Assembly: GCA_021151535.1 (NCBI GenBank)
Contig: JAGKXC010000001.1
Coordinates: 14,601-78,600, forward strand
Origin: Sphingobacteriia bacterium
GTDB lineage: Bacteria > Bacteroidota > Bacteroidia > NS11-12g > UBA955
Length of the DNA: 64,000 nt
Reading direction: 5' to 3'
This document shows, one piece after another, positions 5,836 to 53,995 of the stretch (the first letter of the stretch is position 1; each line of letters opens with the position of its first letter). A program made the translations under genes and the position numbers. The notes beneath the pieces were generated by a model. It had not been told where the DNA came from. It saw nothing but the letters and a program-made list of their open reading frames with translations, and ran no database searches.

Positions 5836-8800
5836 TTAACTACAACCTAAACTATTACCGCAATTCAAACACTTATAACATGTGCCAGATCTAACAGTAA
5901 TATGTCCACAACCATTACAAGCCGGAGCATCAGTTTGTACTTCCTTCAAATAATCTTGCATGTCTTTTTTAGATTGCAATGGCTCATCCATGGAAACTAC
6001 GGGTTGAGCAGCAGCTTTCGTTGGTTGAGGCGCCAAACTTACCAATGGCACAAACTCACTAACAACTGGTGGTTCTACTTTATCCGTTGAACGCATTTCA
6101 GAAGGCTTAACTTGAACCAAATCATCTCTTCTCAAATATTCAAATCCTAACAATCTGAAGATGTAGTCTACAATTGAAGTTGCATTCTTGATATTTGGAT
6201 GACCCTCAACCATTCCGCTTGGCTCGAAACGTGTAAATGCAAACTTATCTACAAACTCTTCCAAAGGAACACCATACTGCAAACCTACAGAAACTGCAAT
6301 AGAGAAACAGTTCATCAAACTTCTGAAACTCGCTCCCTCTTTGTGCATATCAATGAAGATTTCACCCAATGTTCCGTCATCATATTCACCCGTTCTTACA
6401 AAGATTGTCTGCCCTCCAACTCTACCCTTTTGAGTAAACCCATTTCTGCGATTTGGTAAACGCTTCTTTTCTACAATATTTGATAACTGACGCTTGAACT
6501 TAGTATCTGTGCTCTCATTCAAGATTCTCTTCGCAGCTTCTAATACGATCTCAGGAGTTAACTCTTCAGCAATTTTAACAACTGAAGATCCTGATACCGC
6601 TTTATCTGTTGAAGCTGAAGCAGATTCTTCCTTATCATCAGCACTTTCAGATTTATTACTTAAAGGCTGACTCAATTTACAACCATCTCTGTACAACGCA
6701 TTCGCTTTCAAGCCCAATTTCCAACTCATTTCGTAGCAAGATTTAATATCATCAACAGTAGCCTCATTTGGCAAGTTGATGGTCTTACTAATCGCACCAG
6801 AAATAAATGGTTGTGCAGCACCCATCATGCGAATATGAGCATGTGCATGGATATAACGCTCACCCTTGTTACCACAACGGTTGGCGCAATCAAATACCGG
6901 ATAGTGTTCCTCTTTCAAGAATGGAGCACCCTCAATTGTCATTGTGCCTGCCACATAATCATTTGTTTCATTAATTTGCTCGCGAGTAAAGCCCAACGCT
7001 TGCAACATATTAAACTTAGGACTGTTGTACTGTTCTGCAGTAAAGCCCAAACGCTGCATAGTTTCTTCACCCAAAGTATATTGGTTGAATACAAATCCAA
7101 TTTCAAATGCCATTGGAGCTTCTTTCTCAATTTTCGCCAAATCTGCCTCATTGAAACCCTTTGCTGTCAATGATTCATGGTTGATATGAGGTGCGCCAAC
7201 GAAAGTCTGATAACCTTTTGCGTAGTTAACAATTGCATCTATCTCTTCTTGAGGATAACCCAAGTTTTTCAATGCCAATGGAACAGTGTTGTTTACAATC
7301 TTGAAGTATCCACCACCAGACAATTTCTTGTACTTAACCAAAGCAAAATCAGGCTCAATACCTGTAGTATCGCAATCCATCAACAAACCAATGGTTCCTG
7401 TTGGCGCAATTACCGTAGATTGTGCATTTCTAAATCCATATTTTTCACCCCACTGTACAGCCTTATCCCATGAGTTACAAGCAGCTTTCAATAGGTAATC
7501 AGGACAGAATTTTTCATTCAAACATACAGGTGAAATACCCAAACCTTCAAATGCCAATGGTGTATTATAAGCAGCATAACGGTGATTGCGAATTACACGC
7601 ATCATATGCTTTTTATTCTTTTCATACATGCGGAATGGACCCTTAACAGCAGCCATCTCAGCTGATGTAGCGTAAGCAGTACCCGTTAAAATCGCCGTAA
7701 CCGCACCACAAATCGCTGTAGCCTCTTCACTGTCGTAAGGAATACCCGCACTCATTAATACAGAACCTAAGTTCGCATATCCCAATCCCAATGTGCGATA
7801 GTCATAACTCAACTGCGCAACTTCTTTACTTGGGAACTGAGCCATCAAAACAGAAATTTCCAATACAGCCGTCCAAAGTCTTGAAGCATATTCCAATGCA
7901 TCAACATCAAATGTGCAAGCATCTTCACTGAAGAATTTACGCAAATTCAACGATGCCAAATTACAAGCTGTGTTATCTAAGAACATATACTCGCTGCAAG
8001 GATTAGAAGCATTAATTCTTCCTCCCTCAGGACAAGTATGCCATTCGTTGATGGTATCATCGTACTGAACACCAGGATCAGCACAAGCCCATGCAGCATC
8101 GCCAATTGCATCCCAAACTTGTTGAGAAGGCAATGATTTCATTACTTGACCGTTAGAACGGGCGATGAAATCCCAATCTTCACCTTTCTCTAATTTCTCA
8201 AAAAATCTATGAGGAATACGAACTGAGTTGTTACTGTTCTGTCCAGATACAGTTGCATATGCCTCACCTTCGTAATCACTCGCATAACCAGCTTGAATCA
8301 AAGCCGCTACCTTTCTTTCTTCATCCTTCTTCCAGTTGATAAACTCCATGGCTTCAGGGTGATCTAAATCCAAACAAACCATCTTAGCCGCTCTACGTGT
8401 GGTACCTCCACTCTTGATAGCTCCCGCAGCGCGGTCACCAATCTTCAAGAAACTCATCAAACCACTACTTGTTCCTCCACCACTTAGCTTTTCACCCGCT
8501 CCACGTACACCACTAAAGTTAGTTCCAACTCCTGAACCATATTTGAAAATTCTCGCCTCTCTTACCCACAAATCCATAATACCACCCTCGTTTACCAAAT
8601 CATCATCAACACTCAAAATAAAACAAGCATGTGGCTGTGGACGCTCATACGCAGAAGTACTCTTCATCAACTTCTCTGTATCAGGATCTACAAAATAATG
8701 ACCCTGTGGCTTACCTGTAATGGCATAACTACTATACAAACCCGTATTAAACCATTGTGGTGAATTAGGTGCAGCTTCCTGATTCAACATCGAATAAACC

Positions 8801-36954: not shown

Positions 36955-38097
36955 CTATTTTACCGCTACTACCTGTTTTTTCGCCTTCTTCCAGAAAGCA
37001 AAAAAAGAATTCTGTAACATCATTTTAGGCGTTAACCAGTCCCTTTTATCATATCCAACCCCCGAAACGCCATTCACAATGGGGTGCTCCTTTGTAATTA
37101 CTTCAAATCCAGCATTTACAAAGTCCTCTAATTCGCCCCAATAAAAACGTATATTAGGCACTTGCCGGGCTAAATCCATTGCAAATTTTAAAGGCCCTTC
37201 ACCAATTGGATGTGCCTCAAAAAAAAACTTATTAAGCAAAAATACCCGCCTACCAGTTTCCTCTTCATTCCTCCATCTTGGATCCAAATGATAATAATGA
37301 TATATAAAAACCTTCTCACCCGATTCAAAACCCAATTCATTCACAGATTCCACGAACCACAACCTAATAGTCTCCAAAGGCAAATTAAATTGTACCATTT
37401 CACCTTTCTCCAAATTTTCTATCCTGCGATCTTTATTCATCAATTCTTCATACGTACAATCTAAATAAGTTCCAACATCTTTGGTTCCCATGTACTTATT
37501 TATATTCTCTTGATTACAGAAATACAATTTATTAGAATTGGTCCCTGCCACCCACTGCCAACTTAAATGATTGCTCGCCAAATCCCCATCTAACAAATAA
37601 TAATACATCCAATCTGCAGCCATTTTCCATGAATATCCCCACAAATTACAAATTACCGAAGCCAAATACATACGCAAATGATTATGTATGTAACCGTATT
37701 TGTAAAGTTGATTTAAACCATTGTCAAGCGCAGAAATGCCCATTTCCCCTTTCAAAACACTAACTGGCATCCTTCCCTCAGTTCCTAACCTCAAACGCTC
37801 CTGATTATTACGCAAACTCAAAAATATCCCATCGCCATGCCATTGCCACAAATGTTGCCAATATTCCCTCCAAGCCAACTCCTGATAAAATCGCTCATGC
37901 CCCTCTTCATACCCAAATTTTTCAATACAGTAATCACGTACTTCCTTTACCGTAATAACCCCCCTAGAAATATAGGGCGATAAATAGGTTACAGAACCCC
38001 AAATAAAATTCCGCGTCTTGCTGTATTTCACCACATCAATCCCCTCAACTCTACTCCAAATCGCCTCAAATTCAACAGGAAATTCTATCTTACTCAT
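36955..38097 (-). CDS. photolyase/cryptochrome FAD-binding-domain protein lacking the N-terminal alpha/beta domain
   Basis: ELAWREYWQ... and GISALDNGLNQLYKYGYIHNHLRMYLASVICNLWGYSWKMAADWMYYYLLDGDLASNHLSWQWVAGT correspond to the photolyase FAD-binding helical domain (TGxP..DAxMRQL..GWMHNRxR..ASF...DADxAxNxxxWQW). 380 aa. Confidence 0.6.
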   Translation of the reverse strand: MSKIEFPVEFEAIWSRVEGIDVVKYSKTRNFIWGSVTYLSPYISRGVITVKEVRDYCIEKFGYEEGHERFYQELAWREYWQHLWQWHGDGIFLSLRNNQERLRLGTEGRMPVSVLKGEMGISALDNGLNQLYKYGYIHNHLRMYLASVICNLWGYSWKMAADWMYYYLLDGDLASNHLSWQWVAGTNSNKLYFCNQENINKYMGTKDVGTYLDCTYEELMNKDRRIENLEKGEMVQFNLPLETIRLWFVESVNELGFESGEKVFIYHYYHLDPRWRNEEETGRRVFLLNKFFFEAHPIGEGPLKFAMDLARQVPNIRFYWGELEDFVNAGFEVITKEHPIVNGVSGVGYDKRDWLTPKMMLQNSFFAFWKKAKKQVVAVK

Positions 38098-39596
38098 ATT
38101 ACTTGATCCAATGATTTTAAATACCTATCTGCTGTTTCTAAAATTGTAGTTTGAATTTTCTCGTCCCGTGAGTCCCAATTGTTCAATAACATCCTCATCC
38201 GAATATTCCCCTCAAATACTTGGCGATGCTTTACCATAAATCGCCAAAATAACGCATCCCAAATCTGTTGCCAATCCTCACCTTTTTTAAACCATCCCAT
38301 CTTCATCAAATAATTTGAACCCGAGATATAAGGCTTCGTTGTCATTAATCCACCATCCGCAAATGTAATCATCCCATAAACATTGGGTACCATTACCCAA
38401 TCATAAGCATCTACATACAACTCCATAAACCATCGATAAACCTCATCCGGATCAAACTCGCACAACAACATAAAATTACCCAATATCATCAACCGCTCAA
38501 TATGATGGTTATATCCCGTTCTTAATACCTTTTTGATTGCCAAATCTACAGGCAAAATACCTGTTTCCCCCCTGTAGAATGAATTTGGAATCTTTCGATT
38601 AAATCCCCAAAAATTCCGCGTACGTTGAAATCTCCCCTTCTCTTCATATACATGTCTTACAAACTCCCTCCAACCCAAAATCTGACGCACAAATCCCTCA
38701 ATGGAAGCCAATGGAATTTCAAAACGTAATCCATACTCCTCCGCCCTATCAATCACGTATTTGGGCGAAATCAAACCTACATTCATATACATCGATAACC
38801 CAGAATGGAATAAAAAATCATCTCCCGTATCAAAAGATATTGCATCTTCATATGGGCCAAAATCCGCAAACCTTTCCTTCAAAAACAATTCAAACCAAGC
38901 TTTCACATCTCCTGTGGAAGTTGCATAATTTTTACCATTCTGAATCATCGATAAACTACCTGGATTATCACCAAACTTAGACGAAACGTAAGTTATGGCC
39001 TCAGAGCAAAAATCATCCGCTTCACAGAATTTAATCAACGGTATCTGAAAACCTTTTGGTAATCTTTTTCGATTTTCTACATCAAATGACAATTTACCAC
39101 CCAAAAAATCACCATTCTCACCAATTAAAATACCACGCTTCTTCCTAAAAAACTGGTAATAATCTGTTTGAAAATATCGCCTCCTGCCACGTTGAAATTC
39201 CGCGTTTTCATTCTGAGTTTGGATAAATAAAGGCGAATCATGCCATTCTACAGAAACACCCAATACCTGAATTGTTTTCTTTAGCCTTCTTTTTAACCAA
39301 TCATCAACAGGATCGATCAAGATCCAGTGATATTCAACAAATCTGTTGAAAAAACTGACATCCCTAATATCTGAACCCGCATCGCCCGAAGAAATATAAG
39401 ATACAGCTATTCCCTTATTCCTGAGTGATTCATAATATCTTCTCATCGTAACCCGATGAAAATGGAGCTTTATTTTATGAAATTGAAACTGCCTAAAAAA
39501 GAGAAACTCCTCTATCAGAATTACTTCATCACACTGCTCAATTACAGCAATATCACCAAATAATTGATGCGGAAATAAAAATAATACCCTCTTCAA
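38094..39596 (-). CDS. cryptochrome/photolyase-family protein, deoxyribodipyrimidine photolyase-related (DPRP/COG3046-like); no FeS-cluster Cys quartet
   Basis: N-terminus MKRVLFLFPHQLF (compare the DPRP start M..LVLILGDQL). C-terminal GYNHHIERLMILGNFMLLCEFDPDEVYRWFMELYVDAYDWVMVPNVYGM. Only 4 Cys in total, none in the C-terminal region. ATGA overlap with the downstream FAD-domain gene. Confidence 0.6.
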   Translation of the reverse strand: MKRVLFLFPHQLFGDIAVIEQCDEVILIEEFLFFRQFQFHKIKLHFHRVTMRRYYESLRNKGIAVSYISSGDAGSDIRDVSFFNRFVEYHWILIDPVDDWLKRRLKKTIQVLGVSVEWHDSPLFIQTQNENAEFQRGRRRYFQTDYYQFFRKKRGILIGENGDFLGGKLSFDVENRKRLPKGFQIPLIKFCEADDFCSEAITYVSSKFGDNPGSLSMIQNGKNYATSTGDVKAWFELFLKERFADFGPYEDAISFDTGDDFLFHSGLSMYMNVGLISPKYVIDRAEEYGLRFEIPLASIEGFVRQILGWREFVRHVYEEKGRFQRTRNFWGFNRKIPNSFYRGETGILPVDLAIKKVLRTGYNHHIERLMILGNFMLLCEFDPDEVYRWFMELYVDAYDWVMVPNVYGMITFADGGLMTTKPYISGSNYLMKMGWFKKGEDWQQIWDALFWRFMVKHRQVFEGNIRMRMLLNNWDSRDEKIQTTILETADRYLKSLDQVI

Positions 39597-39654: not shown

Positions 39655-41520
39655 TTAGTTTGCTAAATTTGCTTGAAAACAGTACAATTTCCAATGGTGA
39701 TCACCCGAATTCCACATTCTTACCTCATTGTCTTTTACCTCTGTCATATACTGTTTCACCACCCATTCTATCGTGCCGCCATTGGGCCAATCCGCTATGT
39801 TATCAAATAAAATAATCCAAGCAATTCTTCTACCCTTGTTGTATTTCAACTGCCAATAATATTCTTGAAATAATTCTTCCTTGAATTTCGCTTCAGAAGG
39901 CCCCAAACGCTTCCAATCTAAAAACTGCTTCTCTTGCTTCAACTTGTGATGAATTACATCTTGAATTGTACCCGAATCGAAATCCGGAGCCAATCGAATC
40001 CCCTTTTTCCCAAGCATTAACAATCCAGTATTGGGCGATGGATCTCCAACAATCAAAACCTCTGTTGTATCCGCCGCATCCAAACGATTGATCATCCTAG
40101 AAATCGACCTCAATTCTTGGGTATCATCAATCGCATTCTGGCAAAAATAATGGCCCTTCTTAAAACTATAATTCAGCATTTTAGAAGCCGAACCCATTAA
40201 AATAAATGGATATACAAACAAGCCAATTAAACTCAATACACCAACCACTCCACGAAACATGAATCTACCATAAATTTGGTCGATATAGATGGTAAGAATC
40301 GCTAAAAAAATCCAGGGCCAAAAAACCAAATAGTAATAATCATGAAAGCGGAATTGTTTGGCAAATAGCACAAAAAAACAAACTGTACCCAAAGCAACCA
40401 AAACACTCAATTGCTCCCATTTTTGCCAACCCTCTCTGCGATTTTTTTTCATAACATAAACCCAACCAATAAATATTCCTAAGATTAGAGTTGTTGGATA
40501 AAGCCTATCCTTCCAACTGTTCCAAGAAAAATCAATTACATCTTTAAAAACCGACCAAGATTCAGCGGGATTCACTTGTTGCAGAAAATGCACATTCCAC
40601 GTTTGCTTCGTTAACCAGCCCGCATAATAATACCAGCCACCGATTAAACTCAAAACCAACCCAACCAATGCAATATTCACAACACTACCCAATAATCCAA
40701 CAAATGCATCGCCCTTCACAACTTCACTTTCATCTTCAATAACCAAATAATCGCCATCTTGAGAATGCTGAAAAACCGGTTTTTTAGGCTTCCGCAAGAC
40801 AACAATTTGCCATAGATCCAAAAGCAGCATCGCAATAAAAGCAACCAACATGCTCACCTTCAACAATCCAGCAAACAAACTACTCAACAGCAATAAATTC
40901 CGATAATACTTAGCAGATTTTTCATTCTCTTCTACATTTATCAATGCTCTCAATTTTTCGCCCAATCCTCCACGCAAGAATTCCAATCGAAACCAGGCAT
41001 AAATACCCATAAATACAAAACCCAATGCCGCCGCATCAGCCAAAAAACTCCAAGTATAAAACACAAAAACCGGCGATAAAAACAACAATGAAAGGATAAA
41101 CCATCTGCTTATAAATCCAACCCGCATCCAAGCCAGTAATTTGTACAAACTCCAAATTCCCGCACTCAAAATGGTGCCAACCAAAAACCGGTGAACAAAA
41201 AAACTAAACCCAAATACCCTCCCAAAAATCCCACTTAAATAAGCCAAGATTGGAAACTCCATACCCGCAATTCCCTCAGCCGCCCTATTCTCCATCACCC
41301 TTGGCAAGAAAAAATCCCAGGTCTCGTGAAAAAAGTTCCATCCCACACAAGCTCGATCCGCCTGAGCTCCCTGATGCATCCCATATGGCTCCAGCATCCA
41401 ATAATCGCCCCAACCCAAACCCAATTGAATCAATATCCAAATAATCCAAAACCGAGTCCATGACTCACGCCTCTGAAGAGGCAAATTCATGGAATTTAAT
41501 CCTCCAACAAAATTAATCAT
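39655..41520 (-). CDS. GT-C fold membrane glycosyltransferase (ArnT / protein-O-mannosyltransferase-like, family 39/83)
   Basis: 621 aa with at least 11 TM helices in the N-terminal ~420 aa and a soluble C-terminal domain. The start overlaps the stop of the upstream GT2 polyprenol-phosphate glycosyltransferase by 4 bp. Confidence 0.5.
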   Translation of the reverse strand: MINFVGGLNSMNLPLQRRESWTRFWIIWILIQLGLGWGDYWMLEPYGMHQGAQADRACVGWNFFHETWDFFLPRVMENRAAEGIAGMEFPILAYLSGIFGRVFGFSFFVHRFLVGTILSAGIWSLYKLLAWMRVGFISRWFILSLLFLSPVFVFYTWSFLADAAALGFVFMGIYAWFRLEFLRGGLGEKLRALINVEENEKSAKYYRNLLLLSSLFAGLLKVSMLVAFIAMLLLDLWQIVVLRKPKKPVFQHSQDGDYLVIEDESEVVKGDAFVGLLGSVVNIALVGLVLSLIGGWYYYAGWLTKQTWNVHFLQQVNPAESWSVFKDVIDFSWNSWKDRLYPTTLILGIFIGWVYVMKKNRREGWQKWEQLSVLVALGTVCFFVLFAKQFRFHDYYYLVFWPWIFLAILTIYIDQIYGRFMFRGVVGVLSLIGLFVYPFILMGSASKMLNYSFKKGHYFCQNAIDDTQELRSISRMINRLDAADTTEVLIVGDPSPNTGLLMLGKKGIRLAPDFDSGTIQDVIHHKLKQEKQFLDWKRLGPSEAKFKEELFQEYYWQLKYNKGRRIAWIILFDNIADWPNGGTIEWVVKQYMTEVKDNEVRMWNSGDHHWKLYCFQANLAN

Positions 41521-42476
41521 CCCAATGGATCTTCTATGTTACTCTCTCGGATAATATAAGTGGGTCTATTCTTTACATTCTCACTTACCCTACCCAAATA
41601 TTCACCCAACATCCCAATGCCAACCAACTGAACACCACCCAAAAACAAGATCGAAATCTGCAGAGACGTCCAACCCTGAATGGTATAACCAAAGAACTTC
41701 TGATAAATACTATACAATATCATTAAAAAAGCCACAATTGAAACAAGAAAACCCATCATTGTAGCCAATTTCAATGGCCAGTTGCTAAAACTCACAATTC
41801 CATCCATCGCAAACTTCATCATCTTCGAATAACTAAACTTCGTTTCTCCACCCATTCTTTCCTCCCTATCATACTCTACCGCTACATGGTTAAATCCAAT
41901 CCATGCAATCTGCCCACGCAAATATTTATCCCTTTCCGGCATCAACTTCAATACCCTTTGAACCTTCCTATGTATCAACCGGAAATCTCCCGTATCAATG
42001 GGAATCTCCACACTCGTCATCTTCGCCAATAACCGGTAAAAAAGCTTCGCAGTAATCTTCTTCATCAGTGTTTCTCCGCTGCGCGATTTGCGCTTCGCAT
42101 ACACTACCTCAAACCCCTCCAATGATTTTTCATATAACGCTGGAATCAATTCCGGTGGATCTTGCCCATCGCCATCCATGATAATAATCCTTTCCCCTAT
42201 TGCATTCTCAATACCCGCAGTAATCGCTATCTGATGACCGAAATTCCTAGAAAAATCAATATATTTCACCGATTTGTTCTCATCCGCCAACCCCAAAATC
42301 ATCGCCATCGATGCATCCCGCGAACCATCATTCACAAATACAATTTCATACGCAATACCCATCTGCTGCATCACATCCACTATCCTTTGATACAACTTTC
42401 TAATATTCATCTCCTCATTATAAATCGGAACAACCACCGATAACAAAACAGAAGATTGATTTTTGGTTTCAGCCAT
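41517..42476 (-). CDS. GT2 polyprenol-phosphate glycosyltransferase (ArnC/GtrB/DPM1-like), cytoplasmic GT-A domain + 2 C-terminal TM helices
   Basis: LLSVVVPIYNEE...EIVFVNDGSRD...IIMDGDGQDPP (DxD); C-terminal TM segments WPLKLATMMGFLVSIVAFLMILY and SLQISILFLGGVQLVGIGMLGEY. Confidence 0.75.
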   Translation of the reverse strand: MAETKNQSSVLLSVVVPIYNEEMNIRKLYQRIVDVMQQMGIAYEIVFVNDGSRDASMAMILGLADENKSVKYIDFSRNFGHQIAITAGIENAIGERIIIMDGDGQDPPELIPALYEKSLEGFEVVYAKRKSRSGETLMKKITAKLFYRLLAKMTSVEIPIDTGDFRLIHRKVQRVLKLMPERDKYLRGQIAWIGFNHVAVEYDREERMGGETKFSYSKMMKFAMDGIVSFSNWPLKLATMMGFLVSIVAFLMILYSIYQKFFGYTIQGWTSLQISILFLGGVQLVGIGMLGEYLGRVSENVKNRPTYIIRESNIEDPLG

Positions 42477-42530
42477 GTTTCAAAAATATACAATCTTTAC
42501 TTTGTAACTTTGTATTCTAATATCATTCCT

Positions 42531-42932
42531 ATGAAAAAGTTACTTTCCTTTGGTTTTGTTATGTTGTTAACCACCTTTGCCATGGTTTCAACTACCAATT
42601 GCCAACAATCAACTAGCCATGATGGACCAATTTCTGTTGAAGAATTCGATAAAATTATCGGCGGCGATAAATTAGTAATGGTTGATTTTTATACCACTTG
42701 GTGCGGCCCCTGCAAAAGAATGGCCCCTTTTATCCAGCAAATTAAAGAACAACACAGCAACACGGTTATAGTGTTAAAAGTTGATGCCGAAGCACAAATG
42801 AATATTGCTGATCGCTATCGTTTGGAAGGTTACCCAACCGTAATTTTCTTTAAGAAAGGTCAGGTTATCGGGCGATCCCTCGGTTACACCGATTACGACG
42901 GTTTAATGAACCTCGTGAACAAGTTCAAATAA
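42531..42932 (+). CDS. secreted/periplasmic thioredoxin
   Basis: Signal peptide MKKLLSFGFVMLLTTFAMVSTTNC; active site FYTTWCGPCKRMAP. Start moved from the track's 42456 to 42531 because 42456 overlaps the divergent GT2 gene start. Confidence 0.8.
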   Translation: MKKLLSFGFVMLLTTFAMVSTTNCQQSTSHDGPISVEEFDKIIGGDKLVMVDFYTTWCGPCKRMAPFIQQIKEQHSNTVIVLKVDAEAQMNIADRYRLEGYPTVIFFKKGQVIGRSLGYTDYDGLMNLVNKFK

Positions 42933-42960
42933 GTTAATCCCTTCCCACCTATCATATTCA

Positions 42961-42988
42961 AACGCCAGTATCCACTGGCGTTTTTTGT
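42961..42988 (+). terminator. Rho-independent terminator after the thioredoxin gene
   Basis: AACGCCAGT-atcc-ACTGGCGTT 9-bp stem followed by TTTTTTG. Confidence 0.6.
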
Positions 42989-44563
42989 TTAAAAAGATAT
43001 TCCAGCAGATAATTTCAATCCAAGTCCATGAAAAACATTTGGAGCTAATAATGCCTCCACACCGTTGGCTTGAACGTGTAATTGCAGCATTTTTCCATCT
43101 TCATGGAGCTTATACAATCGCCAACCCAAATTGATATCAAACTTATCCCAGCCGCCGATAGAAAATCCCGCAGTAATTCTATTGAAATTCACTCGCATAT
43201 GCTCTCTATAAACACTTTTCTCCGTTCTCCTTATATCAAAGGCCTCGCTGATAATCCTACTAAAAAACGATGCCGGAATTTCAGGTTGTAAACTAATTCT
43301 TGGCATGTATCCTGTTGCATTTATGTATTGAAAACCAAATGGACCCATGTCAATACCCAATTGAAAAGGCATGAGCAAAAATCCAGATCTCCGTTGATCC
43401 AAATTGCCAATATCCTCTTTAACACGATCAACTTCTGAACTGATCCAGTTCGTTTGTTGCAGCTTTGTTGGCGTAATCAAAACCTGCTCAATAGAAACAG
43501 GCTGAACAGCCTTTAATCCTGCAGGTTTAAAGCCCTTACCATTAGCATCCCAAATATACCCTCGGCTACTCACCAACGCATCTTTTAAATAAAACACCCC
43601 AAAATCCTTTAAATCAAACTTGATTACCTGCTTTAACTGGCGATAATATGATCTAGAAAAAAGGTTATAATTACTAAACGACAAACCCATAACCGCGCCA
43701 CTGCTATTTTCATCCATCCTTACCCAGTTATATCGCCCGTTTACAGAAAGTGAATCTGCCAGCGATGAAGTATATACCTTCACAACCTCAGTTTTTAAAC
43801 GCTGAAAACCCGTTAATCTACCCACAAAAACACCCATCTCAATAAACGCAATATTATAATTCCACAATCCATAGGATTCTCGTTTCGTTCTTTCATGGGA
43901 AGATCCATAATAGGTTTCTCTGTTTATTGAAAGCAAAAAATCCAATCGCTCAGCCAAATATTGATCTACCTTATTGCTTCCCACATTCAACAACTCCCCG
44001 CGATAATATCCATTGCCCATAAACATCAATTTATAAGCATCTGGCGATATTTTTCCATTCAACAACCCACCTATACTTCCCACAACAGACCAATAATTGA
44101 TTGTAGAAATGCGAATTTTAGATAGTCCAGTTGCCGAAATAAACGCCGTATCATTTACAATTTCATCGTCTTCTCTCATTTTCTCCAACAGCGATTTATC
44201 TTTCACGTTTGAGGCAATCAACTTCGGTTCTCTAACTACCGAAGAAAATGAAAATCCAAAATTCTGATATAAACCAAATCGGCATTGACCCGTTCCAAAT
44301 CGATTGGCAGTATTACTCAATACTTCCTTGTCCATCCCACCGCCAAAAGCCAATTTATTGAATATATGTTGCGGTAAAATGTTACTTCCCGTCTGCAGAT
44401 TTGAAGTAAAAAAACCATAATACTGCTTCTTCTCTGGCTTCGTTTCAGAAACAGAATCTACCATCACACTATCAGATAAAACATCCTGTGCCATGGAAAT
44501 TCCAACATTACCAATCGCCAGTAAAAATACAATCCACTTACTTTTCATCTTTTCCTGCTCCAA
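42989..44563 (-). CDS. outer-membrane protein of unknown function (beta-barrel-like, C-terminal Phe)
   Basis: Signal peptide MKSKWIVFLLAIGNVGISMAQD. 524 aa, alternating beta pattern, C-terminus ...LKLSAGISF. Confidence 0.45.
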   Translation of the reverse strand: MEQEKMKSKWIVFLLAIGNVGISMAQDVLSDSVMVDSVSETKPEKKQYYGFFTSNLQTGSNILPQHIFNKLAFGGGMDKEVLSNTANRFGTGQCRFGLYQNFGFSFSSVVREPKLIASNVKDKSLLEKMREDDEIVNDTAFISATGLSKIRISTINYWSVVGSIGGLLNGKISPDAYKLMFMGNGYYRGELLNVGSNKVDQYLAERLDFLLSINRETYYGSSHERTKRESYGLWNYNIAFIEMGVFVGRLTGFQRLKTEVVKVYTSSLADSLSVNGRYNWVRMDENSSGAVMGLSFSNYNLFSRSYYRQLKQVIKFDLKDFGVFYLKDALVSSRGYIWDANGKGFKPAGLKAVQPVSIEQVLITPTKLQQTNWISSEVDRVKEDIGNLDQRRSGFLLMPFQLGIDMGPFGFQYINATGYMPRISLQPEIPASFFSRIISEAFDIRRTEKSVYREHMRVNFNRITAGFSIGGWDKFDINLGWRLYKLHEDGKMLQLHVQANGVEALLAPNVFHGLGLKLSAGISF

Positions 44564-44565
44564 AA

Positions 44566-46644
44566 TTATTTGCCAATTTTCACCTGATAATCAACCTCAA
44601 TAGCCGTATTCATCTTTAACTGATAAACACTGTTCATCGTTTTCATCAATCCATCACTATTCAAAGTAGCTTGTATGGCAATAAACTTTGCTTGCTGCAA
44701 AGCCCAAATCTTCTCTCTGGGCAACGCAATACTAAAATTAGATTTCACAGTTTCTACCGGACTTCCATTAGGCAAAGTAATCCCTGGCTCAATGGCATTC
44801 AAACCTCCAACCACATCCAAACTCGTTAAATAACCCATCCCAGCATCTAATAAATCCAATTTCAACCCTGCTCCAAATGGAAACCCATTTTCTACTTCTA
44901 TCAAAATATTAGCGCCCCTAATTCTACTCAAATCACCCAACTTCTCCAACGATAAACTCTGGGTATCCCTTAAATTTAAATGATTAAATAACAATGAATA
45001 AGGCGCCTCTATCTTAAGTATTACTTCAACTTTACTGTTGTCAAAAACAAAATCTTTCCAATTGTTCACATTCCCATTTGGACTGGTTTCAATATCTAAG
45101 TTATAATGCAACAACTGCGGCAAATTCTCAATAAAGGTTCGAATATTTGAATTACTAGAATCTAATGCAATAATGGTCTCTGTGTAGGCATCACGCTTAA
45201 AAGGTGGTGAGGTAACAAATAAATCCTGCCCCAAAACAGTTGCGCCCAAGGCTTGTGAATTCTTGGTAAATACATTTTCCCCTACCAACTTATTCAACCT
45301 TATTCTGCCATCACCGCCAATACTATTTCTCAAAATTAAACTCACCTTAAAATCTTTCAATTTCATGTCAGCATCCAAACCCTTGAATAAATCAAAACCA
45401 GCAACTTGCTCGCCTGTTTGGTTCAAATTCTGACCCATATATCCAATCGCATAATCCGGATACATACCCTCCAATCGGTAATCAATTCGAATACTATCAT
45501 TCAAACCCACCTCTACTTTCCTACCAGAGCTATCCATTGTTACCAGTAAAACCTGGTGGAAAGTGTTTACAGTATCCTTTACGTTCGGATCCTTTCCTCT
45601 AAAGTCAATAACATAATCAGTTAGATCAAACAGCTCATCTTTGGTGGAAATATTCCCCTTAGTTGCACCAGGTAGTTTCACAATTGATTCCAACACCTTG
45701 CCATCCTTTTCAGCCGATGGAATTTTAAAGAACATCGTCATATCCTCCTCAATCGTGCTCACCAGATGAATGCGAATATGACCTCTTTTACACTTAAAAT
45801 ATTTCACCTGCGCACCGCCCATATAAACGGGCAATCCTTCATCTTGGTCTATTACAGTTTGAGTTGGAAACGCAGCTATAGCATGCCTTGGTCTCAATTT
45901 TCTAACGGCCAATTCAACATCCACTCCTTTACTTGCATCAATCAAAACAGGCCCAACACTCGCCTCAGTTATCAACCTTTTAATTGTACCACGCAATCCC
46001 TTAGTTACCGTTTTGTCGCGCAAATCAATCTGCTTCGTTACCGTAGCTTCAACCGCAATATCCATAAATGAATCCAACGCCACCACCGAATTATCCGAAG
46101 CATTCGTTAATTCAAAAACCAACAATTTCACTTTCACCGGCAAATGATTGCTCAACGAAATATCCATCAACCCGCTATCCAATGTAGCCGTTTCAAAAAA
46201 TGCACTGGCATCAATATCCACGGGCGATAAATTTGATTGATCTTGCGCTGGAACATTGGTAGTCTGTCCATTCAACAACTTGAATATGGGATTTATCTCA
46301 CCCAAAGTTACCGAACGCGTTATTTTCTGATCATTCAACTTCAGCCTTTTCAATGTAAAAAATGCCGAGATACCTGTATCATAAGCCCTCACATTCTCCA
46401 TCTGATAACGGTACACCAGATTTTCATACATCAGTTCATAAGAACTATCAATCAAATTTGATTTGAAGTGCGTGGTATCAATATCGCCCAATTTTAAAGA
46501 AGTTTTAAATAATGGCGATACAATACGATTCTCCCATGATGTTGCTTCCCTACTGCATGAAGCAATCACAAATAATACAATTGTTAGTGTACCAAAAATT
46601 AAGCGATTTTTCATCCTTGCTTGCAAGTTAATCCCAACGTGCAA
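44566..46644 (-). CDS. large lipoprotein of unknown function; true start probably MKNRLIF at ~46614
   Basis: Lipobox ...LFVIASCSREATS. 692 aa, no recognisable catalytic motifs. Its stop lies 2 nt before the start of the downstream OMP gene. Confidence 0.45.
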   Translation of the reverse strand: MHVGINLQARMKNRLIFGTLTIVLFVIASCSREATSWENRIVSPLFKTSLKLGDIDTTHFKSNLIDSSYELMYENLVYRYQMENVRAYDTGISAFFTLKRLKLNDQKITRSVTLGEINPIFKLLNGQTTNVPAQDQSNLSPVDIDASAFFETATLDSGLMDISLSNHLPVKVKLLVFELTNASDNSVVALDSFMDIAVEATVTKQIDLRDKTVTKGLRGTIKRLITEASVGPVLIDASKGVDVELAVRKLRPRHAIAAFPTQTVIDQDEGLPVYMGGAQVKYFKCKRGHIRIHLVSTIEEDMTMFFKIPSAEKDGKVLESIVKLPGATKGNISTKDELFDLTDYVIDFRGKDPNVKDTVNTFHQVLLVTMDSSGRKVEVGLNDSIRIDYRLEGMYPDYAIGYMGQNLNQTGEQVAGFDLFKGLDADMKLKDFKVSLILRNSIGGDGRIRLNKLVGENVFTKNSQALGATVLGQDLFVTSPPFKRDAYTETIIALDSSNSNIRTFIENLPQLLHYNLDIETSPNGNVNNWKDFVFDNSKVEVILKIEAPYSLLFNHLNLRDTQSLSLEKLGDLSRIRGANILIEVENGFPFGAGLKLDLLDAGMGYLTSLDVVGGLNAIEPGITLPNGSPVETVKSNFSIALPREKIWALQQAKFIAIQATLNSDGLMKTMNSVYQLKMNTAIEVDYQVKIGK

Positions 46645-46659
46645 GATTCACAAATTCAC

Positions 46660-47172
46660 TTATAAAATATGCTCAAAATACTGACTGATATTGATTTTGA
46701 AAAATCCAACCAATCCAAATATTAATACCCCCCAACAAAGAACAGAAATCACCATCATCTTCCAAGCCGATCTCCTATCTAATCCAAACCCAATCAACAA
46801 CAAGCAAGCCACCGGTAAACTTATCAATACAGGACCTAACAAAGCGATCACACTCAATCCACCTGACATTTTCACTTTCACAATAAATCGATTTTGCCAT
46901 GTAAATTTTCTTTGTTTTTTTGAACCAGACTTCAATTTATCTGACATATCTGGCAAAAACTTTACAGAAAACCATTTTTGCAACTTATTCCAACCCAATA
47001 ACAACATCTCACCCCAAAAAATCCAAGCAGTAACACCCAAAACCCCTCCCAACGTGGTAAACAAAAATCCTTTCACAGGATCATTGGCAAATGCGAACAT
47101 GGCCATACCAACCCCAAAAATGTATTTGAATGAAGATAACAATACAATTCCTGAAATTTCGTACCATTCCAT
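46660..47172 (-). CDS. small polytopic membrane protein (4 predicted TM helices), unknown function
   Basis: 170 aa; hydrophobic helices GIVLLSSFKYIFGVGMAMFAF, LFTTLGGVLGVTAWIFWG, LSVIALLGPVLISLPVACLLLIGF, MMVISVLCWGVLIFGLVGFF. Confidence 0.4.
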   Translation of the reverse strand: MEWYEISGIVLLSSFKYIFGVGMAMFAFANDPVKGFLFTTLGGVLGVTAWIFWGEMLLLGWNKLQKWFSVKFLPDMSDKLKSGSKKQRKFTWQNRFIVKVKMSGGLSVIALLGPVLISLPVACLLLIGFGLDRRSAWKMMVISVLCWGVLIFGLVGFFKINISQYFEHIL

Positions 47173-47362
47173 ACCGTGAAGAAATGAAATTTTGTTCGTT
47201 TTCGTGCAAAAAATATTCCAGCCATTCAGAATTTAACGCAACTTTGTATCTACATATCGAAATTCCATCCCGGAATTTACCCAAATGAGCAATTCAAAGT
47301 CAAAATTCAACCAAATTCCAATTTCATTTGTTAAAGCAAATTTTGGATTGAATGCCTTGAGC

Positions 47363-49447
47363 ATGGGTTGTAAAACTATGTTTCTATTGCTGTGTTGTTT
47401 TTATTTCAATCAATCCTTTGGCCAAATGCCATTAGAGGCAAGTAAGTTCAAGGAATTAGCAGATTCCCAATCACCAGGAAAAACAAAATCCGATTCCATA
47501 AGCGCCGTCAAAAAGAAAACCAATAAACCCAAAACCTACCCAACTGCACAACCATTCCAATTGTCGATTTTAAACAACAAACAAAGGTTCCTCTCAGATA
47601 CTTCCAATCTTTATTGCCATCTTTACGACCCCAACTATCTCAATAATCAAGCTTGGGTAAATTTAGGTGAACCTGCCGGTCCCACGAAAGTGCTTGGTAA
47701 TTTCAGTCTTAATCCCGGATTTAACATAGGACTGAACCCTATGGGATCATTAAAGAAAACCAACCAAAACTTCAAATTTTATCAAGTTCAAGCACCGCTT
47801 ACATTGATGCGATATACACAAGGAACTGGTTCAAGTTTCGCGTTCAATGCCCTACATACTCAAAACCTATCACCTACATGGAACATTACATTAGACTACC
47901 AAAGTATAATAAATGAAAATATGTTTCTCGGAGCTGGTTTAAACTCAACTTCACGAAACACATTCCTTGGCTCAAATTTCACGTCACCCAATGGAAAATT
48001 CCACCAAGTTGTATTATTTGGTTGGAATAGACTAAGAAGAAATGAAAATGGAGGAATAAAACCCGCAGACTTTTATCAATATGCTCAAGTAGCAGATTCC
48101 ACACAATTTGGTCAAAGAACTTTTAACTACTATTCACCTTATTTAACTACTCCAGCCAAATCATTCTTTGGAAATAACCAGCATAGCATCGCTCACCAAT
48201 ACGCGTTAACAAAAAACATCAATATCACCCAATTCTCAACCTTTGAGAAAACAAGATTTCAATATGCAGATACCAAAAGAGATACAAACTTCTATGGCAA
48301 AAATTATTTCCAATACGCTGCAAAAACCAACGACTCTTCTGTGTGGATCAATCAAAACCACTTGTTAGGAACACAATTAGTATTTCAACAAGACTCAATT
48401 AAAAACAATATTATCAGTATAAATTATGCAATCAATAAAGCCACATACCAATCACTATTGCCAATGTGGATCGATTCATTATTGCCCAAAAACTTTTATT
48501 CAAACGGAATTCAATTTCATTGGTTAAATAGCAATTACCAACCCAATAAAATCTCATATCAACTTTTTGGTAATTATACACTAAACGGCAATGGTAAAAC
48601 CGCCCATCATATAAAAGCAGAATTCTGGATTCAAGACATTATCAAAAATCCATTGCCTAAACCCAATCAAACTTACTCATTACAACCAAAATTATCTTTA
48701 AAATTAGAACGAAACTTGCAACTTCCAACCTTATTTGATCAGCAATTCGCTTCTAACCATTTCTTCTACAACAACAACTTCAGTAACCTAACCGGAATTC
48801 AAAATGTGGAAATAACCGCTAACAGAATTACTTTGCTTCAATCCAAAAAGATGAGCATGGAATCTCCAAAAATGCTTACCGAATTAAACTTTAATGCGGA
48901 ATTAGGCCAATGGATAAACCCAGTACTTTCTATCGATGGTGTTCAACCATTACAGTATAATTTCATTTCAAATTACTCAAAAATTACTGCCCAATTCCAC
49001 CAACGAATTAATCATTTCCATTTATACCAAAATATTACATACCATAAATTTAAGGAGAATTACTTAAATCCTTTGTTTAATATGGGTGTTCCCAAAATTT
49101 ACAGCAAAACATCCCTGTTTTTCCAATACTACCTGTTCAACAAAGCCATGTTGGCCAAAACCGGCATCGATATTTGGTACACTTCAGAATTCACACCCAT
49201 GCAGTATCGCCCAGATGCCGCAACTTTCTACTACAATACGTTACAACCTTTTAAATCCGGCAACTACGCCCAAATTGATTGGTATGTATCAGCAAGAATA
49301 CAAACTGCAGATATCTATTTCAAAATAGAACATGCAAATGAACTATACCATATCCCAGGTTTTAACACCAGATATGATTATGTGCTCTACCATCCAATCC
49401 AACCCTATCGTGTTAGATTTGGTTTGCAGTGGAAATTCTATAATTAG
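47363..49447 (+). CDS. outer-membrane protein of unknown function (putative porin-like); start uncertain (47285/47363/47378)
   Basis: Signal peptide MGCKTMFLLLCCFYFNQSFGQ. 690-720 aa, rich in N/Y/Q/F beta-strand-like segments, C-terminal ...RFGLQWKFYN. Confidence 0.45.
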   Translation: MGCKTMFLLLCCFYFNQSFGQMPLEASKFKELADSQSPGKTKSDSISAVKKKTNKPKTYPTAQPFQLSILNNKQRFLSDTSNLYCHLYDPNYLNNQAWVNLGEPAGPTKVLGNFSLNPGFNIGLNPMGSLKKTNQNFKFYQVQAPLTLMRYTQGTGSSFAFNALHTQNLSPTWNITLDYQSIINENMFLGAGLNSTSRNTFLGSNFTSPNGKFHQVVLFGWNRLRRNENGGIKPADFYQYAQVADSTQFGQRTFNYYSPYLTTPAKSFFGNNQHSIAHQYALTKNINITQFSTFEKTRFQYADTKRDTNFYGKNYFQYAAKTNDSSVWINQNHLLGTQLVFQQDSIKNNIISINYAINKATYQSLLPMWIDSLLPKNFYSNGIQFHWLNSNYQPNKISYQLFGNYTLNGNGKTAHHIKAEFWIQDIIKNPLPKPNQTYSLQPKLSLKLERNLQLPTLFDQQFASNHFFYNNNFSNLTGIQNVEITANRITLLQSKKMSMESPKMLTELNFNAELGQWINPVLSIDGVQPLQYNFISNYSKITAQFHQRINHFHLYQNITYHKFKENYLNPLFNMGVPKIYSKTSLFFQYYLFNKAMLAKTGIDIWYTSEFTPMQYRPDAATFYYNTLQPFKSGNYAQIDWYVSARIQTADIYFKIEHANELYHIPGFNTRYDYVLYHPIQPYRVRFGLQWKFYN

Positions 49448-52417: not shown

Positions 52418-53995
52418 ATGGAAAATTCACCCAGAAAACCCATACCGGCATTAGCCATACTGCTGATCATTTACACACTGTTATCTCTTATCGGAATTAC
52501 CAATCCACCAGTGGAAATTGGACATAACTGGCGACAAACTGTTACCGCCATGATGGCCCGAAACTTCTACACCCATAATACTACTTTTCTTTACCCAGAA
52601 GTAGACATGACCGGTAACAAATCAGGAATTATTGGTGCTGAATTTCCATTATTCCCCCAACTTATAGCGTACGCCGATCAACTTTTTGGTTTCCAACATT
52701 GGTACGGAAGATTAATAAATTTAATCATTTCAATTTTCGGGGCGATCGCTTTTTACACGTCAACAAAGCAGTTGTTTTCAAAAAAAATTGCCTTCAATGC
52801 TACAGCCATTTTACTCTGTTCTATTTGGTTTTCTTTCGCCCGTAAAATAATGCCAGATACATTCTCCATATCCTTCGCCTTGATAGGCAACTACTTCCTT
52901 CTTCAATGGCTATCGCCAAATTTACAACAGGTAAAAACAACAGAATTTAAATCGCCATTCAACCCCAATTATCCCGCTTCAAATCCCATTGTAGAAAGCA
53001 TAAATACACCCTCAAAGAAACTATCTCTTGCCCCATTCCATATTTTGGGCTTCATCTTTTTTTCTTCTCTGGCGATTTTAACAAAGCTACCCGCATTACT
53101 TTGGCTTACTCCTGCTGCTTGTTTTGTTATGTATGGTAACGCACCACGCAAAATCAAATTCTCTATCATAATAGCCTCCATTTTAATTATTATCCCAGTA
53201 ATTCTATGGTACTACATTTGGGTACCAGAACTCAATAAACACTTTCAATTATTTTATCCAAAATCCATATTAGAAGGTTGGGTTGAATTCCTGCCATTCT
53301 GGAAAATGGCATTAGAAAGATTTTACTTTACGGCCCTTTACTCTTTTGTTGCTTTGATTTTTCTAATTCTAGGAATTTACTTTTTTATCAAAAAACAATC
53401 ATTCAAAAGAAATATATCCTTGTTCATTACGCTACTTGTTTTCGTAGTTTTCATTATAAAAACAGGAAGTGTTTTCCCTCAACATAATTATTATGTAATA
53501 CCATTCGTTCCTATCATGGCTATTGTTACAGGAATTGGAATTACAGAATTTATACAACAAATTTCTAAAAAAGAAAAGCCAATTTTCAAATACATAATAC
53601 TGATTATTATTGGTACTGAAGCCATTCTTAATCAGCAACATGAGTTGTTCATTAAACCCAGTGAACTATACAAATTGCAATTAGAAAAAATCGGTAAATC
53701 TATTCCTAAAAATAACCTAGTAATAAGCAATTCTGGAATCAATCCACAGGAAATTTACCTGCTCAATCGCAGAGGTTGGGTTGTGTTCTCAAATCAACTT
53801 TGCAAACCTCAATTCATTGATAGTCTATATCACTGCGGGGCAAAATACATCCTTATAAATAAGAATCTTCAAGAAAATTCAGACGTTGAAAGCTGTTTAA
53901 ACAATCAACAAAATACAGCTTATCATTACATCCAAAAGTACGAATCCAAAGACTATCGCCTAATTGCTATTTCTTCTTCTCAAAGCCCAAACTGA
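52418..53995 (+). CDS. GT-C fold membrane glycosyltransferase (ArnT/PMT-like family 39)
   Basis: 525 aa, at least 11 TM helices then a soluble C-terminal domain. N-terminal loop HNWRQTVTAMMARNF...GAEFPLFPQL is similar to the first periplasmic loop of ArnT/PMT enzymes. Confidence 0.5.
   Translation: MENSPRKPIPALAILLIIYTLLSLIGITNPPVEIGHNWRQTVTAMMARNFYTHNTTFLYPEVDMTGNKSGIIGAEFPLFPQLIAYADQLFGFQHWYGRLINLIISIFGAIAFYTSTKQLFSKKIAFNATAILLCSIWFSFARKIMPDTFSISFALIGNYFLLQWLSPNLQQVKTTEFKSPFNPNYPASNPIVESINTPSKKLSLAPFHILGFIFFSSLAILTKLPALLWLTPAACFVMYGNAPRKIKFSIIIASILIIIPVILWYYIWVPELNKHFQLFYPKSILEGWVEFLPFWKMALERFYFTALYSFVALIFLILGIYFFIKKQSFKRNISLFITLLVFVVFIIKTGSVFPQHNYYVIPFVPIMAIVTGIGITEFIQQISKKEKPIFKYIILIIIGTEAILNQQHELFIKPSELYKLQLEKIGKSIPKNNLVISNSGINPQEIYLLNRRGWVVFSNQLCKPQFIDSLYHCGAKYILINKNLQENSDVESCLNNQQNTAYHYIQKYESKDYRLIAISSSQSPN

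Follow-up and report, generated by a model that had tools for sequence, protein, structure and literature searches.

What kind of envelope apparatus is encoded where genes for a small inner-membrane protein, a large lipoprotein and an outer-membrane β-barrel follow one another on the same strand, and do all three belong to it? The question is raised by a 64,000-nt stretch of Sphingobacteriia bacterium DNA (contig JAGKXC010000001.1, positions 14,601 to 78,600; hereafter the window), in which these genes, here called TM170, the lipoprotein gene and OMP524 (for outer-membrane protein, OMP), lie one after the other on the minus strand. An earlier note, made from the letters of the window, had described them as an operon without nameable relatives that might encode a trans-envelope machine. 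We find that the lipoprotein and OMP524 are most likely a divergent, enlarged form of a DUF4621-DUF5723 pair known from Bacteroidales and Chitinophagales, and that TM170 is probably an addition specific to one aquatic clade.

OMP524 as a divergent DUF5723 barrel

OMP524 begins with a signal peptide, ends in LSAGISF and has the predicted fold of an outer-membrane β-barrel. Neither it nor 22 further members of its family match the Pfam hidden Markov model (HMM) of DUF5723 (PF18990) at E ≤ 0.1. The connection runs through a locus from Chitinophagales (L069), where a homologue of the window lipoprotein (30% identity) is overlapped by a 444-aa gene that does belong to DUF5723 (PF18990, E 2e-29). 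Using hhalign, the OMP524 profile (alignment A2) aligns with this protein over 362 columns, near its full length (probability 98.7%, E 2.9e-16), and hmmsearch with the OMP524 family profile likewise recovers it (E 1.2e-24). This near end-to-end alignment points to OMP524 being a divergent member of DUF5723, a homology that depends on the L069 intermediate because the direct comparison with the Parabacteroides distasonis protein described below is weak.

At the level of predicted structure, OMP524 compares best with BrkA (15.2) and FadL (14.9), followed by Flavobacterium johnsoniae BamG (13.5), PorV (13.1) and CymA (12.9), so that the modelled barrel is closest to FadL- and autotransporter-type barrels. 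A profile search of PDB sequences found no sequence relationship to any of these five. Secondary-structure strings, from which both the strand number of the barrel and the domain boundaries of the lipoprotein were read, predict 14-16 long strands that probably project outward. We discarded a catalytic reading of E498 and H507 in the barrel (motif GxES…HGxG), as these residues are not conserved in the L069 DUF5723 protein. Separately, three large proteins (P0136, 1511 aa; P0148, 904 aa; P0150, 1241 aa) match OMP524 around residues 249-318 in six to nine stretches each; a repeated β-hairpin motif or a compositional effect may lie behind these matches.

A lipoprotein with a DUF4621-like C-terminal region

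The lipoprotein is predicted to be an all-β chain of jelly-roll domains. A Foldseek search of its model, a check that the earlier note had proposed, ranks 4h3w first (E 7.7e-11, probability 1.0); 4h3w is the crystal structure of BDI_1231 and belongs to DUF4621 (PF15414). The same entry is the top, insignificant, match when PDB sequences are searched with the lipoprotein profile. With hhalign, the lipoprotein profile aligns with a full DUF4621 sequence through its C-terminal region alone (E 1.5e-4, probability 51%), and a C-terminal sub-profile does so at E 2.1e-5 (probability 77%). Profile comparison found no similarity to DUF4621 in residues 1-460, and for the core of residues 80-400, with NLSPVDIDASAFFETATLD and DFRGKNPDVKDTVNTFHQ among its conserved motifs, no relative was detected beyond the lipoprotein family. 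In Pfam, including PF15414, neither the window lipoprotein nor its L069 homologue finds a match. The C-terminal part of the lipoprotein thus appears related to DUF4621 by predicted fold and, weakly, by sequence. An origin by internal duplication, with two DUF4621-like halves, was rejected, all hhalign E-values being at least 0.026. The lipoprotein domains further resemble PNGase F, CBM6/35 and the Bacteroides surface glycan-binding protein B, and the plasmid collection searched below holds no relative of the lipoprotein.

The N-terminus, MKNRLIFGTLTIVLFVIAS followed by C, contains a valid lipobox. Surface lipoproteins of Bacteroidota carry an acidic export signal after this Cys, a rule drawn from work on Capnocytophaga and Bacteroides. 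Here the stretch reads C-[KSQ]-R-[EK]-P/A-x-S-W-D: it is basic at positions +2/+3 (K/S/Q, R), has no run of D or E, and 96% of 51 orthologues have R or K at position +3. With basic residues in place of an acidic export signal, the lipoprotein probably faces the periplasm.

The same pair in Bacteroidales and Chitinophagales

A tblastn search of an annotated plasmid collection with the L069 DUF5723 protein returned one record, from Parabacteroides distasonis (L158). Four genes are co-oriented there, in the order small signal-peptide β-protein, DUF4621 lipoprotein, DUF5723 and GT87 glycosyltransferase. The lipoprotein (lipobox LAAC) belongs to DUF4621 by its Pfam score (E 5e-229); a gap of 36 nt separates its gene from that of the DUF5723 protein (E 4e-116), and 142 nt separate the latter from the GT87 gene (E 1e-38). 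The two genes of the pair are UNS60_RS15870 and UNS60_RS15865. A scan of viral contigs yielded no further DUF5723 loci.

A lipoprotein gene therefore lies directly upstream of, and co-oriented with, a barrel gene in the window, in 110 of 110 clade loci, in L069 and in P. distasonis. Because DUF4621 and DUF5723 were reached by independent routes, one by fold and the other by profile, and then proved to be paired in Bacteroidales, the assignment of both window proteins becomes much more secure. The presence of the pair in Bacteroidales also implies that it is old within the phylum. We conclude that the window lipoprotein and its barrel are probably a divergent, enlarged DUF4621-DUF5723 pair.

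Beyond the shared gene order, the versions of the window and of P. distasonis have in common the fold, with weak sequence similarity, of DUF4621 and the C-terminal domains of the window lipoprotein, and each adjoins a glycosyltransferase of the polyprenyl-phosphate-sugar type. They differ in that the window lipoprotein has 682 aa rather than about 350 and contains a core (residues 80-400) without counterpart in DUF4621, that both it and OMP524 fall below Pfam thresholds, and that the aquatic clade adds a TM170 gene and a divergent Porin_10 gene. Directly upstream of the P. distasonis pair and on the same strand (6592-7356, +), the position that TM170 holds in the aquatic clade is occupied by a 254-aa signal-peptide protein. 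With its high β-content, its C-terminal GRIF and no match in Pfam, it is probably a small outer-membrane barrel.

A conserved and tightly linked unit in an aquatic clade

Conservation was followed in 72 loci from species-representative genomes, all of them metagenome-assembled genomes (MAGs) of uncultured Bacteroidota, mostly from freshwater, and in 79 loci from a metagenome scan, which mostly returned the same clade and only two Chitinophagales-like loci (L077 and L146). Full-length homologues of the lipoprotein number more than 160 (48-95% identity); none is named or has a Pfam domain. Because OMP524 and TM170 evolve fast, word-based searches recovered few homologues of either; an exhaustive phmmer search brought the OMP524 family to 28 representatives. 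With profile HMMs, an OMP524-family gene is found downstream of the lipoprotein gene on the same strand in every one of the 110 loci with room for it, and about 132 of 134 have a co-oriented TM170-family gene upstream; just the two Chitinophagales-type loci are true exceptions. Such conservation of order in more than 100 independent loci, together with the number of lipoprotein homologues, shows that the three open reading frames (ORFs) are not chance frames. Many of the MAG records with this Bacteroidota locus bear unreliable titles, among them Rhizobium sp., Bifidobacterium sp., Sphingomonadales, Methylophilaceae, Chitinophaga pinensis and Chryseobacterium gleum (L005, L024, L029, L033, L041, L046-L048, L054, L057, L063, L066, L068 and L072).

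The lipoprotein and barrel genes are the more closely linked, overlapping or abutting with a median gap of -17 nt (55 loci), which suggests that they are probably translationally coupled. TM170 and the lipoprotein gene are spaced less tightly (median 55 nt, range -32 to 186 nt). The block of thioredoxin (Trx), GT2 and M621 genes that follows the barrel gene (39655-42932) is inverted in most of the relatives compared (L003-L072) with respect to the window and its closest relatives, L001 and L002; the breakpoint coincides exactly with the 3′ terminus of the barrel gene and leaves the triad intact.

Within the window itself, we recovered all three ORFs where the earlier note had placed them (46660-47172, 170 aa; 44566-46644, 692 aa; 42989-44563, 524 aa). 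Two of the start positions did not hold up: the longest frames of the lipoprotein and OMP524 open with TTG, and homologues and public gene calls favour ATG codons at 46614 and 44548, giving proteins of 682 and 519 aa. With these starts, TM170 lies 45 nt from the lipoprotein gene and the latter 17 nt from OMP524, where 15 and 2 nt were originally counted; the intergenic gaps remain operon-like. No terminator-like site was found at either internal junction. A 10-bp hairpin situated 6 nt past the OMP524 stop codon probably marks the end of the transcription unit; its T-run is good on the plus strand and weaker on the minus strand. A scan for σ70-type promoters gave sites at chance level, the Bacteroidota -7 motif TAnnTTTG has no exact match in the divergent intergenic region (47173..47377), and an Rfam scan of the window returned no regulatory RNAs. 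The gaps, the uninterrupted junctions and the gene order kept in more than 100 loci are compatible with the suggestion that the three genes are probably transcribed together. Hydropathy, the lipobox, the signal peptide and the AGISF end likewise agree with the composition first proposed, a small inner-membrane protein, a lipoprotein and a barrel-like outer-membrane protein with a C-terminal Phe, and support the view of the three genes as a conserved, co-oriented envelope unit.

Features of the locus and sequence identity of selected proteins across the clade
Feature	Position in window	Strand	Identity across clade	Description
TM170	46660..47172	-	30-48%	Inner-membrane protein, 170 aa; from ORF, hydropathy and family alignment A3
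Lipoprotein	44566..46614	-	48-73%	682 aa, predicted all-β chain of jelly-roll/β-sandwich domains; TTG of longest ORF at 46644
Signal peptide II and lipobox (VIAS, then C20)	46555..46614	-		Post-Cys residues C-[KSQ]-R-[EK]-…-W-D
Lipoprotein, most conserved core (about residues 80-400)	45415..46377	-		Invariant columns; block conservation 0.65-0.85
Lipoprotein, DUF4621-like C-terminal region (about residues 466-672)	44599..45219	-		Least conserved part
OMP524	42989..44548	-	20-31%	519 aa; predicted β-barrel, putative divergent DUF5723; longest-ORF TTG at 44563; signal peptide, C-terminal Phe
GC-rich hairpin, 10 bp	42960..42983	.		In 56-nt convergent gap between thioredoxin gene (+) and OMP524 (-)
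Divergent intergenic region, TM170/Porin_10 gene	47173..47377	.		Presumed promoters, by inference
Porin_10 (PF14121) outer-membrane protein gene	47378..49447	+		Pfam E 4e-42; diverges from triad
GT2, PgfS/ArnC-like polyprenyl-phosphate glycosyltransferase	41517-42476	-		Pfam/NCBIfam; possible functional context
M621, 621-aa GT-C-like membrane protein	39655-41520	-		No Pfam match; possible functional context
PolA			60-77%	

TM170, a putative clade-specific addition

By hydropathy, TM170 comprises four hydrophobic segments, and its central loop is strongly basic. Its family alignment (A3) shows the motif FSKKNRxLVxLKxxGGLxLxAFLxPxILSIPVGC and conserved prolines inside the hydrophobic segments. 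The only recurrent weak Pfam signals among the orthologues are VTT_dom (PF09335) and PF06695, each below threshold in 3 of 19 (best E 0.0019 and 0.0057, respectively), and both belong to the DedA superfamily (bioRxiv 10.1101/2020.12.18.423352). Minimal DedA members such as YqaA (PF06695, 'small multidrug export') are of similar size (140-170 aa), and the four hydrophobic segments and the prolines add to the likeness. Comparison with Escherichia coli YqaA is not significant, however (hhalign E 0.21, probability 0.3%); neither of the DedA motifs, [F/Y]xxx[R/K] and GxxxVxxxx[F/Y], was identified in TM170, and a profile search of PDB sequences found no match. We keep the DedA assignment as a lead only. 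TM170 is absent from the L069, L146 and P. distasonis loci. From these comparisons it would seem to be a clade-specific addition to the pair, of uncertain family and with an unproven resemblance to DedA.

Likeness to known envelope systems

Models of T9SS (the type IX secretion system) and of Gld, Sus, Lpt, Bam and Lol components in Pfam and NCBIfam match none of the three proteins, and PDB sequences, including those of BAM and T9SS complexes, gave no hit in profile searches save the insignificant one of the lipoprotein to 4h3w. This part of the claim that the proteins match no nameable family stood, and no well-characterised family in Pfam or NCBIfam reached threshold for any protein of the triad or for the many orthologues scanned with them. 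The claim fails in that the barrel can be assigned to DUF5723 and the C-terminal part of the lipoprotein related to DUF4621, the latter by the Foldseek search, which for OMP524 led to FadL/autotransporter-type barrels.

In the BAM complex of Bacteroidota the FadL-type barrel BamG holds the surface lipoprotein BamH (PMC12611786; PDB 9n2d). We considered whether OMP524 and the lipoprotein are BamG and BamH and rejected the idea: the similarity exists at fold level only and is no better than that to autotransporters or FadL, sequence searches gave no match, and the locus is not linked to the bam genes. The likeness to FadL/TodX channels and PorV is similarly confined to fold, and those barrels are not encoded with a large lipoprotein partner. 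Synthase-dependent exopolysaccharide export by BcsB-BcsC and PgaB-PgaA also combines a periplasmic multi-jelly-roll protein with an outer-membrane barrel, and BcsB and PgaA/BcsC are among the weaker fold matches of the window proteins, with low and generic scores. Unlike those systems, the window locus has no processive synthase, tetratricopeptide repeat scaffold or cyclic di-GMP module, and the neighbouring GT2 is of the polyprenyl-phosphate type.

What the pair might do

In the reading that we favour, a large β-sandwich lipoprotein and a DUF5723-family barrel of 14-16 strands would be produced jointly and, most likely, dock with one another at the outer membrane. Within the aquatic clade, the lipoprotein would have been extended at its N-terminus by very highly conserved β-sandwich domains, about 400 residues in all, and a TM170 gene would have been recruited upstream. 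Facing the periplasm, the lipoprotein could extend from the barrel in the direction of the inner membrane. This two-partner outer-membrane module would have a housekeeping role, handling an envelope component that is hydrophobic or glycosylated, for example a glycolipid, a glycan linked to polyprenyl or a lipoprotein. Such a component is suggested by the neighbouring polyprenyl-phosphate-sugar glycosyltransferases, the FadL/autotransporter-like barrel and the resemblance of the jelly rolls to carbohydrate-binding modules. The housekeeping character is suggested by the conservation of the lipoprotein (48-73% identity, against 60-77% for PolA) and by the lack of Sus, TonB-dependent transporter or glycoside hydrolase genes nearby; a service in nutrient uptake is unlikely.

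Taken as a whole, we would give this joint reading an even chance of being correct. Several observations weigh against it. OMP524 stays below the Pfam threshold for DUF5723, with a weak link to the P. distasonis protein (E 0.013), and in the lipoprotein the relationship to DUF4621 is confined to the C-terminal third and is of marginal significance in sequence. Being empirical, the rule of the acidic export signal leaves room for surface exposure. The glycosyltransferase association spans three lineages with three enzyme types and arrangements and could be coincidence. Finally, a literature search for DUF5723, DUF4621, Porin_10 and the Porphyromonas gingivalis protein Q7MT24 found no functional data, which for the two DUF families also counts against the proposed role.

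The triad could instead be a trans-envelope transporter, in which TM170 acts in the inner membrane as a DedA-like flippase for lipid or polyprenyl phosphate, the lipoprotein as a periplasmic bridge and the barrel as the exit for a lipid or lipid-linked glycan. The co-oriented triad in about 132 of 134 clade loci would fit such a machine, as would a 682-aa β-sandwich chain long enough to span the periplasm, a FadL-like barrel fold, the minimal-DedA size, prolines and weak VTT_dom/PF06695 signals of TM170, and the polyprenyl-phosphate GT2 and GT-C-like protein next door. Yet all DedA-type matches are sub-threshold (E 0.21 for YqaA), and no ATPase or other energy-coupling component is encoded nearby. 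The spacing of TM170 from the lipoprotein gene is variable (-32 to 186 nt), and the absence of TM170 from the Chitinophagales-type loci and from P. distasonis implies that the pair works without it. We thus regard this transporter as unlikely, and the trans-envelope machine proposed in the earlier note is not established, given that the Chitinophagales-type and Parabacteroides versions lack TM170 and that its gene is more loosely spaced. Distinctly doubtful is a bolder version of our own reading, in which the pair forms a hitherto unrecognised, phylum-wide complex that acts downstream of the GT2/GT-C enzymes and receives, modifies or exports a glycolipid or glycoprotein of the outer membrane, and a DedA-like TM170 that recycles or flips polyprenyl-phosphate makes the clade version trans-envelope.

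A different possibility is that the lipoprotein sits on the surface, binds a glycan or other ligand and is tethered to the barrel for uptake or surface interaction, after the manner of SusD-SusC, BtuG-BtuB or BamH-BamG. Pairs of a barrel and a surface lipoprotein are typical of Bacteroidota (BamG-BamH being an example; PMC12611786), and the lipoprotein domains resemble PNGase F, CBM6/35 and surface glycan-binding protein B. The long strands of the barrel are probably directed outward, as in a published DUF5723 model, in which the barrel has 16 strands that are extended on the extracellular side (bioRxiv 10.1101/2025.01.03.631275), and a P. gingivalis DUF5723 protein is present in outer membrane vesicles (PMC12937337). 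Against a surface location speak the missing acidic export signal and the basic +2/+3 positions of nearly all orthologues, and a core far more conserved than is usual in surface-exposed binding proteins. Features of polysaccharide utilisation loci (TonB-dependent transporter, glycoside hydrolase, regulator) are likewise absent nearby, and OMP524 has no sequence similarity to BamG, FadL or PorV. On this evidence a surface-binding role seems quite improbable. One might also suppose that the genes share no function and merely stay together in a slowly rearranging lineage, as polA, the Porin_10 gene and the GT2/GT-C block are also syntenic clade-wide and gene order is generally stable. But most loci have overlapping lipoprotein and barrel genes, their pairing recurs in Chitinophagales and Bacteroidales amid otherwise unrelated gene contexts, and the inversion of the Trx-GT2-M621 block broke exactly at the end of the barrel gene and spared the triad. 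For the lipoprotein-barrel pair this idea is already largely refuted, and we consider it very unlikely overall.

Genomic context

The GT2/M621 block adjoins the barrel gene throughout the clade, in either orientation. A GT2 of the same type accompanies the pair in L069, as GT87 does in P. distasonis, so that three lineages have glycosyltransferases next to the pair, a hint that it may handle an envelope glycoconjugate or lipid. Two GT-C-type genes flank the region (39655-41520, -; 52418-53995, +), one encoding a PMT_2-family protein and the other its paralogue; M621 shares its N-terminal region with the PMT_2-family GT-C protein of the window (BLASTP E 1e-6), and one of the two genes is coupled to the polyprenyl-phosphate GT2 by a 4-nt overlap. 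The genes nearby include no Sus component, TonB-dependent transporter, glycoside hydrolase, T9SS component or ATPase. An origin in defence or phage was set aside, as PADLOC and PHROGs gave no matches.

On the other side of the triad, the divergent porin-like gene that had been noted beside it is confirmed as Porin_10 and keeps its place next to TM170 clade-wide. It ends at 49447 (+) and has possible starts at 47285, 47363 and 47378. Read from the first of these (47285-49447, +), its product is unusual in composition, being rich in Asn (11.0%), Gln (7.4%) and Tyr (6.5%) and very poor in Val, Glu and Asp.

Elsewhere in the window, two photolyase/cryptochrome-related genes (DPRP plus FAD_binding_7, and FAD_binding_7) overlap by 4 nt at 36955-39596 (-). 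The plus strand is C-rich throughout the window (1-64000): counted in 2-kb bins, bulk GC skew always stays below zero (-0.04 to -0.43), and the skew at third codon positions is -0.44 in long ORFs of the plus strand and +0.49 in those of the minus strand. This skew does not switch across the 64 kb, is independent of gene direction and is much stronger than the usual replication skew.

Implications

The outer membranes of Bacteroidota are built around partnerships of a barrel and a lipoprotein, such as SusCD, T9SS and BamG/H, and each pair newly understood has changed the view of this envelope. Our analysis links DUF4621, a family with a solved structure, and DUF5723 as one conserved gene pair, and describes a version of the pair, doubled in size and highly conserved, found universally in an aquatic clade that is abundant and uncultured. 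Orthologues in Parabacteroides and Porphyromonas are genetically tractable, and polyprenyl-phosphate-dependent glycosylation is a candidate context in which to study them. If the two proteins were just an accessory pair of outer-membrane protein and lipoprotein, the result would mainly improve annotation; a role in the biogenesis of outer-membrane glycolipids or lipoproteins, if true, would matter for the envelope biology of gut and environmental Bacteroidota alike.

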